A DNA stretch of 64,000 nt, taken from NCBI RefSeq assembly GCF_006345805.1, contig NC_043011.1:36158464-36222463 (forward strand), given 5' to 3'. A program made the position numbers and the translations under genes. The notes under the pieces were generated by a model. It saw only the letters and a list, made by a program, of their open reading frames with translations, ran no database searches and was not told the origin of the DNA. Positions 25,891 through 57,829 of the stretch are shown here, piece after piece. Positions within the stretch are counted from its first letter, which is position 1, and every line of letters begins with the position of its first letter. This DNA comes from Octopus sinensis. Its lineage: Eukaryota.

Positions 25891-26706
25891 TTTCAACAAT
25901 TGAGGGTAAAATTAATTAATTTATTATTAATCAATTTCACCAAGTGTTCAGTATGTAAAGGGACCATTTAAGGCGAATTCAAAATATTACATTTTATAAA
26001 GGGCTTAGTAAAAAAATTACTTTGCCACATACTGAACTCATTAGAAATAGCAGCCAAAAAAAATTTTTTTAGCCATTTCTAATACTTAAAGAAAATTTCT
26101 CTCAGATAGTGTTTACTCAAAAAATAACCCACGAAGGTATGCGGGTAAAAACATTAAAAAATCACAAGTGCAAAGATTATTTGAGAACGTACGTTTCTAG
26201 ATCAGCCAAAATACAATTCGACATTTCTTTCGTCAGCTCAAAATTTCTTAATTCGGATTTGTAAACACTGAAAGTAGGAGCATACCCTTTTGGCGACTTT
26301 TCACCTCCGAAGATCCGTTCAAACTAACAGTGCCAACAAATTCAAAATATGCAAGCGAAGAATTTCTGCCTTCCCCTTCCACCCATGTGGGCTAAACTAG
26401 CAAACACCATGTTTTATCAGTGAAAACCGAAGCATTAAACAGAGAGAAATGAATTATAATTTCAACAATTGAGGGTAAAATTAATTAATTTATTATTAAT
26501 CAATTTCACCAAGTGTTCAGTATGTAAAGGGACCATTTAAGGCGAATTCAAAATATTACATTTTATAAAGGGCTTAGTAAAAAAATTACTTTGCCACATT
26601 GTTGAAATTATAATTCATTTCTCTCTGTTTAATGCTTCGGTTTTCACCGATAAAACATGGTGTTTGCTAGTTTAGCCCACGTGGGTGGAAGGGGAAGGCA
26701 AAAATT
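25891..26706 (-). mobile_element. Non-coding Penelope-like/retrozyme-like element: 569-bp monomer, 140-bp tandem repeat and 109-bp inverted copy, in (TA)n
   Basis: 25891-26030 = 26460-26599; 26598-26706 = reverse complement of 26361-26469; contains a hammerhead motif. Confidence 0.8.
26180..26242 (-). ncRNA. Type I hammerhead ribozyme motif
   Basis: UUUGAG-CUGACGA-[32-nt stem II]-GAAA-CGUACG-UU-CUCAAA; 6-bp stem I, palindromic stem III, GUU site. Confidence 0.75.
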
Positions 26707-27157: not shown

Positions 27158-27201
<44 letters not shown>

Positions 27202-27208
<7 letters not shown>

Positions 27209-27477
27209 ATATTTTGGAATGGTCATTTTGCCAGTTTAGCCAATAAAAACACACGCACTATATATTTGGTGTTATTTTGCTTCAGTGTTATTCATTTTTT
27301 ACATTAATCTTAATCGGCCGAAATAAGATTAAGATTAATGTAAAAAATAAAAACACTGAAGCAAAGTAACACCAAATATATAGTGCATGTGTTTTTATTG
27401 GCTAAACTGGCAAAATAACCATTCCGAAATACAACAATATCTGTTTCAACACACGACTTCACATAAAAAAATCTTGC

Positions 27478-27483
<6 letters not shown>
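27202..27483. mobile_element. (TA)n-embedded fold-back element (~115-bp arms)
   Basis: 27202-27315 inverted at 27326-27440; same family as 54868-55388. Confidence 0.8.
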
Positions 27484-27515
<32 letters not shown>

Positions 27516-36332: not shown

Positions 36333-39300
36333 GTGACACCAGCACCAGTGCTTTTATGTGACACCAGCACCAAGTACATTTTACATGGTACCAGCACCAG
36401 TGCTTTTTATGTGACATCAGCTCCAAGTACATTTTACATGGTACCAGCGAGAGTGCTTTTTATGTGACACCAGCACCAAGTACATTTTACATGGCACCAG
36501 CACCAGTGCTTTTTATGTGACACCAGCACCAAATACATTTTACATGACCCCAGCACCAGTGCTTTTTATGTGACACCAGCACCAAGTACATTTTGCATGG
36601 CCCCAGCAACAGTGCTTTTTATGTGACACCAGCACCAAGTACATTTTACATGGCACCAGCACCAGTGCTTTTTATGTGACATCAGCACCAAATACATTTT
36701 ACATGACCCCAGCACCAGTGCTTTTTATGTGACATCAGCTCCAAGTGCATTTTACATGGTACCAGCAAGAGTGCTTTTTATGTGACACCAGCACCAAGTA
36801 CATTTTACATGTCACCAGCACCAGTGCTTTTTATGTAACACCAGCACCAAGTACATTTTGCATGGCCCCAGCAACAGTGCTTTTTATGTGACACCAGCAC
36901 CAAGTACATTTTACATTATACCAGCACCAGTGCTTTTTATGTGACACCAGCACCAAATACATTTTACATGACCCCAGCACCAGTGCTTTTTATGTGACAC
37001 CAGCACCAAGTACATTTTGCATGGCCCCAGCAACGTGCTTTTTTATGTGACACCAGCACCAAGTACATTTTACATTATACCAGCCCAGTGCTTTTTATGT
37101 GACACCAGCACCAAGTACATTTTGCATGGCCCCAGCAACAGTGCTTTTTATGTGACACCAGCACACCAGTACATTTTACATTATACCAGCACCAGTGCTT
37201 TTTATGTGACACCAGCACCAAATACATTTTACATGACCCCAGCACCAGTGCTTTTTATGTGACACCACCACCAAGTACATTTCATGGCCCCCAGCAACAG
37301 TGCTTTTTATGTGACACCAGCACCAAGTACATTTTACATGGCACCAGCACCAGTGCTTTTTATGTGACATCAGCACCAAATACATTTTACATGACCCCAG
37401 CACCAGTGCTTTTTGTGACATCAACTCCAAGTGCATTTTACATGGTACCAGCAAGAGTGCTTTTTATGTGACACCAGCACCAAGTACATTTTACATGTCA
37501 CCAGCACCAGTGCTTTTTATGTAACACCAGCACCAAGTACATTTTGCATGGCCCCAGCAACAGTGCTTTTTATGTGACACCAGCACCAAGTACATTTTAC
37601 ATTATACCAGCACCAGTGCTTTTTATGTGACACCAGCACCAAATACATTTTACATGACCCCAGCACCAGTGCTTTTTATGTGACACCAGCACCAAGTACA
37701 TTTTGCATGGCCCCAGCAACAGTGCTTTTTATGTGACACCAGCACCAAGTACATTTTACATGGCACCAGCACCAGTGCTTTTTATGTGACATCAGCACCA
37801 AATACATTTTACATGACCCCAGCACCAGTGCTTTTTATGTGACATCAGCTCCATTGCATTTTACATGGTACCCCAGCAAGAGTGCTTTTTATGTGACACC
37901 AGCACCAAGTACATTTTACATGTCACCAGCACCAGTGCTTTTTATGTAACACCACAGCACAAGTACATTTTGCATGCCCCAGCAACAGTGCTTTTATGTG
38001 ACACCAGCACCAAGTACATTTTACATTATACCAGCACCAGTGCTTTTTATGTGACACCAGCACCAAATACATTTTACATGACCCCAGCACCAGTGCTTTT
38101 TATGTGACACCAGCACCAAGTACATTTTGCATGGCCCCAGCAACAGTGCTTTTTATGTGACACCAGCACCAAGTACATTTTACATTATACCAGCACCAGT
38201 GCTTTTTATGTGACACCAGCACCAAGTACATTTTGCATGGCCCCAGCAACAGTGCTTTTTATGTGACACCAGCACCAAGTACATTTTACATTATACCAGC
38301 ACCAGTGCTTTTTATGTGACACCAGCACCAAATACATTTTACATGTCACCAGCACCAGTGCTTTTTATGTGACACCAGCACCAAGTACATTTTGCATGGC
38401 CCCAGCAACAGTGCTTTTTATGTGACACCAGCACCAAGTACATTTTACATTATACCAGCACCAGTGCTTTTTATGTGACACCAGCACCAAATACATTTTA
38501 CATGACCCCAGCACCAGTGCTTTTTATGTGACACCAGCACCAAGTACATTTTGCATGGCCCCAGCAACAGTGCTTTTTATGTGACACCAGCACCAAGTAC
38601 ATTTTACATGGCACCAGCACCAGTGCTTTTTATGTGACATCAGCACCAAATACATTTTACATGACCCCAGCACCAGTGCTTTTTATGTGACACCAGCACC
38701 AAGTACATTTTACATGGCACCAGCACCAGTGCTTTTTATGTGACATCAGCTCCAAGTGCATTTTACATGGTACCAGCACCAGTGCTTTTTATGTGACACC
38801 AGCACCAAGTACATTTTACATGGCACCAGCACCAGTGCTTTTTATGTGACATCAGCACCAAATACATTTTACATGACCCCAGCACCAGTGCTTTTTATGT
38901 GACACCAGCACCAAGTACATTTTACATGGCACCAGCACCAGTGCTTTTTATGTGACATCAGCTCCAAGTGCATTTTACATGGTACCAGCACAGTGCTTTT
39001 TATGTGACACCAGCACCAAGTACATTTTACATGGCACCAGCACCAGTGCTTTTTATGTGACATCAGCACCAAATACATTTTACATGACCCCAGCAACAGT
39101 GCTTTTTATGTGACACCAGCACCAAGTACATTTTACATGGCACCAGCACCAGTGCTTTTTATGTGACATCAGCTCCAAGTGCATTTTACATGACCCCAGC
39201 ACCAGTGCTTTTTATGTGACATCAGCTCCAAGTGCATTTTACATGGCACCAGCACCAGTGCTTTTTATGTGACACCAGCACCAAATACATTTTACATGAC

Positions 39301-39532
39301 CCCAGCACCAGTGCTTTTTATGTGACATCAGCTCCAAGTGCATTTTACATGGTACCAGCAAGAGTGCTTTTTATGTGACACCAGCACCAAGTACATTTTA
39401 CATGTCACCAGCACCAGTGCTTTTTATGTAACACCAGCACCAAGTACATTTTGCATGGCCCCAGCAACAGTGCTTTTTATGTGACACCAGCACCAAGTAC
39501 ATTTTACATTATACCAGCACCAGTGCTTTTTA
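36333..39532. repeat. 53-bp satellite, ~60 units, dimeric subunits, with higher-order repeat
   Basis: Unit GTGACACCAGCACCAAGTACATTTTACATGGCACCAGCACCAGTGCTTTTTAT; variant units recur in a fixed order. Confidence 0.97.
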
Positions 39533-54458: not shown

Positions 54459-54867
54459 GCGCTTGCATCCATTCTAGTGGATTTGATGATATATGATTTC
54501 TGTAGAAATCATTTATCATCAAATCTGAAGAATCCACTAGAGTGGATGCAAGCACTAATATATGATTTATAAAAACATGTGACATATTAATAAATAGCTG
54601 TAAATATAAAACCATTCAGATTTCTGCGTACCTTATTTCTTCTAATATATAATACCTGTATGTCACCTCCAAACCTTCACCACCTGTCTTCATCTTTTGT
54701 TTTTTTCAGTTATTTGGTTTTCGTCACACATGAGGAATACCTAAGACTACCGGCTATTTGGGAATTCTAAGGGTGAACAAGCTCTATTTGTGCTCTTATA
54801 CATTCTCAAAAGAACACACCTCAACTATATATATTTATATAAATATATATTTATATATGTTTATATA

Positions 54868-55388
54868 TTTGTTGTGCAAGATTTTTTATGTGAAGTCGTG
54901 TGTTGAAACAGACATTGTTGTATTTCGGAATGGTCATTTTGCCAGTTTAGCCAATAAAAACACACGCACTATATATTTGGTTTTACTTTGCTTCAGTGTC
55001 ATTTATTTTTTATATTAATCTTAATCTTATTTATACACGGACGTATATAAACAGAAGATACAAATATTACAGGCATCCCCCCACCCACACATACACACTA
55101 ACTAAACATAGATGCACATAGAGATATACGCATGCACAAATGAAGACACATACAATAGAAATACAAAATGGCTGACGGTTAGTAAGGAGAGACACACAAA
55201 TAAGAAAGAAGAAAGCAAAGGACCACTGATGTGGTCACAGGAGTGTGAGGAAAGAACTCTGGCCGAAATAAGATTAAGATTAATGTAATAAATAAATAAC
55301 ACTGAAGCAAAGTAACACCAAAAATATAGTGTGTGTGTTTTTATTGGCTAAACTGGTAAAATGACCATTCCGAAATACAACAATATAT
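54868..55388. mobile_element. (TA)n-embedded fold-back element, same family as 27202-27483
   Basis: 54913-55032 inverted at 55266-55387 around a ~235-bp spacer. Confidence 0.8.
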
Positions 55389-55406
55389 TTATATATATAT
55401 ATATAT

Positions 55407-55735
55407 AATAATAAATATTAGGGAATAAATCCAAATTTACAGGGAAAAAATCAGATTTAGGATTAAATCCAATTTTATAGTAAAATATTATAAAATATTA
55501 TTAGAGACAAAACCACTATTTTGCAAAACAAACAAGGAAAGACTTAATCAATACATAAAATTTTAATAAATAGTCAAAAAAACCGCCACTACAATTGTTT
55601 CTTGTCTTGATCGACAATCTTCAGGTGGACTTCCAATAAGTCAGTTTCAAATAAATTTGACTATTTATTAAAATTTTATGTATTGATTAAGTCTTTCCTT
55701 GTTTGTTTTGCAAAATAGTGGTTTTGTCTCTAATA

Positions 55736-55745
<10 letters not shown>
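55407..55745 (-). mobile_element. (TA)n-embedded fold-back element carrying a hammerhead
   Basis: 55489-55578 inverted at 55657-55745; left end homologous to 57459-57545. Confidence 0.8.
55586..55628 (-). ncRNA. Minimal type I hammerhead ribozyme motif
   Basis: CCAC-CUGAAGA-UUGUC-gaucaa-GACAA-GAAA-CAAUUG-UA-GUGG; all three helices pair, GUA site. Confidence 0.8.
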
Positions 55746-55786
<41 letters not shown>

Positions 55787-55836
55787 TATATATATATATA
55801 TTATATATATATAAATATATATACATATATATTATA

Positions 55837-55878
<42 letters not shown>

Positions 55879-56148
55879 AATATATATACATTTTATAAAT
55901 GAGGGCAAAGGAAAACATTTCTAATGCCAAATATGCCGAAAAATTGGACATATTGTCCATTAACCATATAATATCTATTTCCCTCCCTGTCCACTTGTCT
56001 CCTCATCTTTTTTCACAGATAATTCTACATTTCTGTTACCCCCTACCCACCCACCACTCTTCATATTAGTTATTCTTTATTCTTTTCTTTGTAATTCCAT
56101 CTAACATTTCTTTTGCTCTCCTTCTTTTTCTCTTTACCTTGTGCCTCT

Positions 56149-57458: not shown

Positions 57459-57464
<6 letters not shown>

Positions 57465-57812
57465 AAATATTAGGGAATAAATCCAAACTTACAGGGAAAA
57501 ATCAGATTTAGGATTGAATCCAATTTATAGTAAAATATTATATTATATTAAATTAGAAATAAAACTACTATTAGGCAAATCATGCAATGAAAAACTTAAG
57601 CCAATACATAAGATTAATTAATTTATATTATTTAAATATATATCAAAATTATTAAAAAAGATAATTAATATAACACATTATATTAGTTATCTTTTTTAAT
57701 AATTTTGATATATATTTAAATAATATAAATTAATTAATCTTATGTATTGGCTTAAGCTTTTAATTGTATGATTTTCCTAATAGTGGCTTTATCTCTAATT
57801 TAATATAATATA
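57459..57812. mobile_element. (TA)n-embedded fold-back element (~135-bp arms), relative of 55407-55745
   Basis: 57539-57672 inverted at 57677-57812. Confidence 0.8.
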
Positions 57813-57829
57813 TATATATATATATATAT

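Follow-up and report, generated by a model that had tools for sequence, protein, structure and literature searches.

The question raised by this locus

The stretch of Octopus sinensis DNA analysed here (64,000 nucleotides, hereafter the window) carries at 55407 to 55745 a fold-back whose loop holds a minimal hammerhead ribozyme motif on the minus strand. The question is whether this arrangement presents a working ribozyme within a host transcript or is a product of retrotransposition. We put at roughly 87% the probability that the 339-bp feature is an intron-less terminal-repeat copy of a Hydra-clade Penelope-like element (PLE) that was derived from spliced RNA and inserted head-to-head into (TA)n. 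This is the best explanation because of the identity to the parent element, the exact loss of an intron, the fixed 3′ ends, the (TA)n flanks and a wall in exon 1 at 23 nt. The copy is composed of the following features.

55385..55406, no strand: (TA)n target, left side, from the sequence
55407..55637, minus strand: 231 nt of exon 2, belonging to the terminal repeat / 5′ UTR of the parent, by identity to parents
55407..55484, minus strand: one-sided 'tail' of 78 nt between two fixed 3′ ends
55489..55578, minus strand: left fold-back arm, within exon 2, by complementarity
55586..55628, minus strand: type I minimal hammerhead, with stem I CCAC/GUGG, core CUGAAGA...GAAA...UA and a 4-bp stem II
within 55586..55628, minus strand: hammerhead helix III, the palindromic ACAAUUGU
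55638/55637, minus strand: splice junction, where the parent has a 1.2-1.8 kb GT-AG intron
55638..55652, minus strand: last 15 nt of parent exon 1, by comparison with parent loci
55653..55655, no strand: 3-nt filler at the head-to-head junction, matching neither partner (compared with parent exon 1)
55656..55745, plus strand: inverted partial copy, beginning 60 nt into exon 2, 3′ of the hammerhead
55746..55891, no strand: (TA)n-rich target, right side, from the sequence

The fold-back and its hammerhead

The two arms are complementary at 90 of 90 positions and enclose a loop of 77 nt; the near-perfect arms of the original prediction (55489-55578 and 55657-55745) are real but prove to be perfect and one base longer. 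A 361-nt fold spanning the fold-back has a z score of -21. The inverted copy terminates at the fixed 'no-tail' end of the family and, because this arm ends 3′ of the hammerhead, a single motif is left in the loop. Both the inverted, 5′-truncated copy and the one-sided tail, within which a 13-bp hairpin is predicted at 55447-55476, are part of the insertion anatomy of EN+ PLEs, as described in Craig 2021 and Arkhipova 2013. Arms and loop give no support to a special setting of the ribozyme; they are the known anatomy of a Penelope-like insertion, and copies differ freely in where they turn back. At the turn of the window copy, a 5-nt microhomology was considered and rejected; the junction consists of 15 parent bases, 3 filler bases and the arm.

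The minus strand from 55628 to 55586 reads CCAC CUGAAGA UUGUC GAUCAA GACAA GAAA CAAUUG UA GUGG, with a predicted cut site at 55590/55589, exactly as first proposed, and was the sole match of a hammerhead scan covering both strands of the window. The motif has the CUGANGA, GAAA and UH elements of a hammerhead core together with helices I and II; the Rfam hammerhead families gave no match at gathering score in the window. The G10.1-C11.1 pair is absent, a U-A standing instead. The outer U-A described as closing stem II is not paired in 5 of the 11 family and sister sequences compared, and we prefer a stem II of 4 bp (UGUC/GACA), flanked on either side by a single free base.

The isolated hammerhead has no stable fold (z -0.47). 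According to computed energies, helix III is unfavourable in the monomer (+2.4 kcal/mol), its 8-bp self-duplex is worth -6.4 kcal/mol, and a hammerhead dimer reaches -20.6 kcal/mol, compared with -9.4 kcal/mol for two monomers. The hammerhead of the window copy is inherited cargo, and the prediction is that it would cleave poorly alone and would need a dimer or the protein of the element.

A young family with sister subfamilies

The 39-nt hammerhead core has 776 exact matches in the 2.7-Gb genome, with the arms of one locus counted separately, and the reversed control has none. A search for the helix III palindrome with a different N7 yielded 554 further matches (control, 1) that belong to sister subfamilies. 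A genome-wide count of the motif had been suggested as a check, and a lack of conservation in homologous copies as grounds for rejection; the motif proves to be retained in such copies. Of 30 matches picked in the order of the genome, nearly all stop at one or the other of two points that lie 78 nt from each other, with (TA)n following. The window locus is one young insertion among hundreds and has little importance alone.

Across 11 aligned family and sister sequences the core is invariant except for N7 in all 11, in an alignment for which the search for sister sequences itself demanded the core; stems I and III are nearly invariant and loop II is variable. Nine of the 12 stem pairs never vary, and 161 of 500 shuffles score as high for covariation. 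The motifs at 26180 and 27810 carry a different palindrome and no similarity to them was found, which bears out the proposal of a separate family. At least five sister subfamilies (L106-L135) retain the core, the helix III palindrome and the tail, with variation in loop II and N7, and the same intron end recurs in several of the copies read.

A parent with the features of a Hydra-clade element

The parent was traced via the sequence beyond the tail in a tandem copy (L058), which gave 40 scored matches, 28 of which were read. In each of the 28 loci, reading on past the tail reaches the start of an ORF, and part of the repeat lies within 1.5 kb in 27. In full copies this ORF begins 56 nt after the tail, that is, 56 nt beyond the position equivalent to 55407, and the two fixed 3′ ends sit 56 and 134 nt before the ATG. 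Full units run in the order hammerhead, ORF, long GT-rich UTR, exon 1 end, intron and hammerhead, and measure 5.6-6.3 kb; the distance from hammerhead to hammerhead is 5578 nt in L093 and ~6270 nt in L094. Exon 2 of the window copy is 96.5-99.6% identical to the matching stretch in seven long parent loci.

The ORF codes for a reverse transcriptase (RT) followed by a C-terminal GIY-YIG; this single ORF is read in two frames in L091. Its motifs are RIKWK, SDKT and YRDD, then CTCRDKSNC, a GIY-YIG-type endonuclease and CYLC. RIKWK, found in place of RWK, aligns with RIRWK of a homolog; DKT replaces DKG, the linker is CxCX5C, CCHH is absent, a CxxC precedes the conserved E, and one C lies between the GIY- and YIG-equivalent motifs. 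The Hydra clade is defined by features such as DKT, the CxCX5C linker and the C-terminal GIY-YIG in the available text of Craig 2021 (PMC8557442). The family shares with this clade the insertion into (TA)n and the hammerhead in the repeat, and the parent unit is longer than the clade's norm of <3 kb. Judged by these clade-defining ORF motifs, the parent is most probably a young Hydra-clade Penelope-like retroelement. A placement in the Neptune clade was rejected, the ORF features fitting the Hydra definition.

Pfam returned no family in the RT frame of the parent; in the endonuclease frame its one match was unrelated and sub-threshold. Among 55 homologs, the few that are named with a species come from Argonauta and Octopus. 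None of the eight long loci read has an unbroken full-length ORF, and an active master copy was not seen among them; errors of assembly may account for the breaks. An asparagine-rich stretch (L091:4780-5110) that lies between the RT and endonuclease parts resembles the inserts described for rotifer Penelope elements in the accessible part of Arkhipova 2013.

Four loci, L058 (G000:C2:66798500-66801800), L059, L060 and L076, hold tandem arrays (units of 409-456 nt) and tandem fold-backs of the family, with several hammerheads in the same direction, and are candidates for dimer cleavage and for the birth of retrozymes. Back-splicing was rejected as the origin of the L058 array, no GT donor being present at that point of the ORF in the 28 loci read; a template jump that left the ORF accounts for the array better.

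Exact splicing and a likely transcription start

From the window copy the intron of the parent (1.2-1.8 kb, GTAAGT to TTTTAG) has been removed exactly, and 15 nt of exon 1 are kept. In the genome, 703 exact spliced junctions compare with 453 exact unspliced acceptors (controls 0), a ratio that is rough because the arms were counted separately and the search patterns differed. The intron ends 9 nt before stem I, and splicing therefore leaves the ribozyme core unchanged.

We examined 50 spliced loci, drawn from the first 52 spliced loci among the matches listed and required to have sequence upstream of the ribozyme cut. The exon 1 remnant is 11-24 nt long in 49 of them and exactly 23 nt in 11; the exception, L060, is a spliced locus with a long exon 1, from which it follows that read-through RNA is also spliced. 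Position 23 of exon 1 is the A of TCACTT, and an initiator-like TCACT has been noted in a rotifer Penelope repeat (Arkhipova 2013, available portion). The limit at ~23 nt likely marks the transcription start of the parent, and we infer from the DNA that the spliced copies arose by run-off at the 5′ end of the mRNA. None of the public runs listed as containing the sequence is from RNA. Four runs that we guessed to be RNA contain contigs of the family across the stretch, in which neither joints nor pile-ups of ends were found, such contigs lacking strand, ends and level.

The same evidence bears on the idea that the locus would be a MITE or fold-back DNA transposon whose hammerhead-like core arose by chance, or else an assembly chimera. 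The perfect inverted arms and the absence of an Rfam match would suit this idea. A MITE has symmetric terminal inverted repeats and involves no RNA step, whereas the arms here are asymmetric, the tail is one-sided, the intron is exactly removed and an RT ORF is linked to the repeat; loop-type junctions like this one were met at 6 further places. Two public runs, one of which may be the source sample, contain every sampled word of 55407-55660, and this too counts against the idea. The linkage to the RT and the spliced junction already largely refute both versions, which we regard as barely credible.

Turn points vary among spliced copies

Of the 50 spliced loci, 27 have an inverted arm that begins 5′ of the hammerhead, in 7 the arm begins 3′ of the motif and in 1 within it; the other 15 lack an adjacent arm. 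The window copy falls into the 3′-turn class (7/50), which has a single hammerhead in the loop, and this configuration is a common variant. A nearly identical turn was found at seven places, the window included, and 5 of 40 loci have an identical palindrome centre. In 14 of 15 two-armed loci one arm has a tail end and the other a no-tail end, single-armed copies use either end, and at some loci the arms are separated by unrelated DNA; together, these three observations lean towards two cDNAs meeting head to head.

The spread of turn points also weighs on the explanation that this is a selected intronic ribozyme, whose 90-bp stem would present an active hammerhead that cuts the host pre-mRNA. 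Folding the hammerhead costs only 2.2 kcal/mol over the best fold in the window copy, compared with 77 kcal/mol in a full-palindrome copy, which would leave the motif free on a transcript of the minus strand, and its core is intact. However, loop-type copies are a minority of the spliced loci and their turn points are scattered, and the identity of up to 99.6% to the parents means that the intact core reflects youth. The unfavourable helix III of the monomer speaks against activity as well, as does the lack of cleavage by a single minimal hammerhead reported in the consulted part of Cervera 2014 (PMC4209133). A search around the locus did not identify a host gene: four candidate ORFs had no Pfam match, and the best of them gave nothing in two further searches. 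Despite the free hammerhead of the 3′-turn class, nothing points to selection, and we consider an intronic ribozyme very improbable.

Somewhat less remote, yet still improbable, is a self-standing non-autonomous family, retrozyme- or SINE-like, that is copied from short or circular RNAs and not directly from the parent mRNA. The excess of spliced short copies over unspliced acceptors (703 and 453), the recurrent palindrome centre and a few tandem arrays (L058, L059) count in its favour. Against it, the window copy is a monomer, the junctions differ among most copies, and the L058 array is better explained by the template jump. Furthermore, 5′ ends stop at the likely start of the parent and not at the ribozyme cut, in a sample that required sequence upstream of the cut.

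Proposed origin of the window copy

For the favoured retrocopy of spliced parent RNA, the following course may be proposed. Transcription of the parent would begin at an initiator-like start, 23 nt ahead of the splice donor, and the RNA would then be spliced. The RT-endonuclease would nick (TA)n, and reverse transcription would be primed internally, upstream of the ORF, so as to give one cDNA that begins at the tail end, crosses the uncut hammerhead and reaches close to the 5′ end of the RNA. The 90-nt inverted arm may represent a second cDNA, whose priming would have been at the no-tail start and on the other strand of the target, to which we give slightly better than even odds; that it is a snap-back copy of the first cDNA has odds a little short of even.

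The available sections of Frangieh 2024 (PMC11167929) describe a related course for the Anolis element PAc, whose protein cuts AT-rich DNA on both strands and whose reverse transcription in vitro starts at two internal sites that define the tail, with uncut RNA as the template; the PAc hammerhead cuts only when the protein is present. By analogy, the anatomy of the window family fits the PAc mechanism.

For head-to-head repeats and intron retention, Arkhipova 2013, in the part accessible, proposed self-priming on an antisense template and left the matter open. In the window family many head-to-head copies are spliced, which argues for a sense RNA template; they also stop at one point, which fits a sense mRNA. 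If the short copies, or stubs, are run-offs of sense mRNA, neither the head-to-head repeats nor the retention of introns would call for an antisense template. The family maps a likely transcription start and two RT starts, and is a useful natural experiment on the polarity of the Penelope template and on the capture of host exons.

Host exons joined to the splice acceptor

Some copies of the family have foreign sequence joined at the splice acceptor. We inspected 30 matches in which the AG is preceded by A, C or G (L151-L180); in 26 of them (19 loci) the upstream sequence was unmatched in four parent copies. Sources were sought for two chimeras of this set and for one that had come up separately. 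In two of the three traced chimeras the junction is the exact end of a host exon, with GT next in the source.

L057 (G000:C2:76939500-76942500) and L138 (G000:C2:4871813-4874990) are processed copies of one piece of host mRNA, which has a weak match to a UEV domain and which we take to be 'VPS37A-like'. In the source (G000:C15:14078568-14090289) the exon ends before GTAAGT, and in the copies it is joined to the acceptor, with 2 nt of microhomology to the spliced element at the junction. A family acceptor was not found within 280 kb downstream of this source. A DUF4674 gene has a fold-back retrocopy at L162/L163 (G000:C7:84910537-84914941), in which at least three exons are spliced together; the last of these ends before GTAAGA in the source (G000:C5:44196991-44216091) and is joined to the acceptor in the copy. 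Within 300 kb downstream of the DUF4674 source a family acceptor was again not found, the stretch containing just two tail fragments of 75% and 94% identity. The third chimera, L154, carries a rhodanese-like ORF, and a search for its source gene found none.

The chimeras show a retrocopy route through the splice acceptor of the element, like exon capture by SVA in primates. The likelier origin is splicing in cis to an insertion that was polymorphic, lost or unassembled. It is unlikely, in our estimate, that the strong acceptor of the family is spliced in trans to host exons from RNAs made elsewhere and, by adding the hammerhead and the RT start sites, tags these for fold-back retrocopying, with stubs, the window copy among them, that would be sense run-offs independent of an antisense template. 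Should the chimeras arise in trans, they would represent a route of gene-fragment capture that we did not find described for PLEs; in the mainly open-access literature that was accessible, including PMC6431247 and PMC13282606, we found no description of exon capture or of spliced run-off stubs in these elements.

Relation to known elements

The comparisons in this section are with the available portions of the cited works. Members of the Hydra clade, including Hydra-1_Obim (PMC8557442), share with the parent the C-terminal GIY-YIG, DKT, CxCX5C and the lack of CCHH, and share with the family the (TA)n target, the inverted truncated copy and the one-sided tail. The Hydra-clade motifs in File S2 of Craig 2021 (PMC8557442) likewise have a free base on either side of a short stem II, and many of them also open stem II with U-A. 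In contrast to the clade's elements of <3 kb (PMC8557442), the parent unit has 5.6-6.3 kb, a long GT-rich UTR and an intron of 1.2-1.8 kb; the tail is 78 nt and not 30-40 nt, the hammerhead sequence differs from the one listed for Hydra-1_oBim (PMC8557442), and there are hundreds of spliced short copies.

The hammerheads of metazoan PLEs and of Drosophila virilis Penelope (Cervera and de la Pena 2014, PMC4209133) are also of type I with a 4-bp helix I and a palindromic helix III, follow a dimer design, come with an intron ending just 5′ of helix I, and occur as single motifs and as close opposite-strand pairs from truncated elements. The window motif differs from them by the U-A in place of G10.1-C11.1, and the intron of its family ends 9 nt before stem I. 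With PAc, a Poseidon element of Anolis (PMC11167929), the family has in common an AT-rich target, two internal RT starts, a tail, extension of both strands and an uncut RNA template, but PAc belongs to a different clade and has its starts and hammerhead inside the ORF, whereas the ends of the window family lie 56 and 134 nt before the ATG.

In SVA_F1 and pt_SVA_D6 (Damert 2018, PMC6139936), as in the chimeras, a host exon was spliced to the acceptor of a retroelement and retrotransposed. The chimeras differ in their Penelope-like carrier and fold-back products, in comprising several host sequences at one or two loci each, and in that no source copy was found downstream of the two traced genes. 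Animal non-LTR retrozymes (Li, Clavereau and Pollet, bioRxiv 10.64898/2026.07.22.740005) are likewise non-coding, bear a type I hammerhead and are akin to PLE repeats. They consist by definition of two or more tandem units, each with a hammerhead, whereas the window copy is a monomer with an inverted arm, near-identical to an ORF-bearing parent; arrays of the family occur rarely elsewhere in the genome.

Three further repeats lie in the window. A sister-family stub at 57460-57817 shares the tail and part of the arm (83-86%) and is a palindrome without a hammerhead. A neighbouring fold-back at 54839-55387, with arms of 119 nt, occupies the same (TA)n tract in the opposite orientation; it has a degenerate hammerhead-like core near 55221-55265 (plus strand) and is related to 27167-27514. 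A long tandem array with a period of ~53 nt spans 36334-39532.
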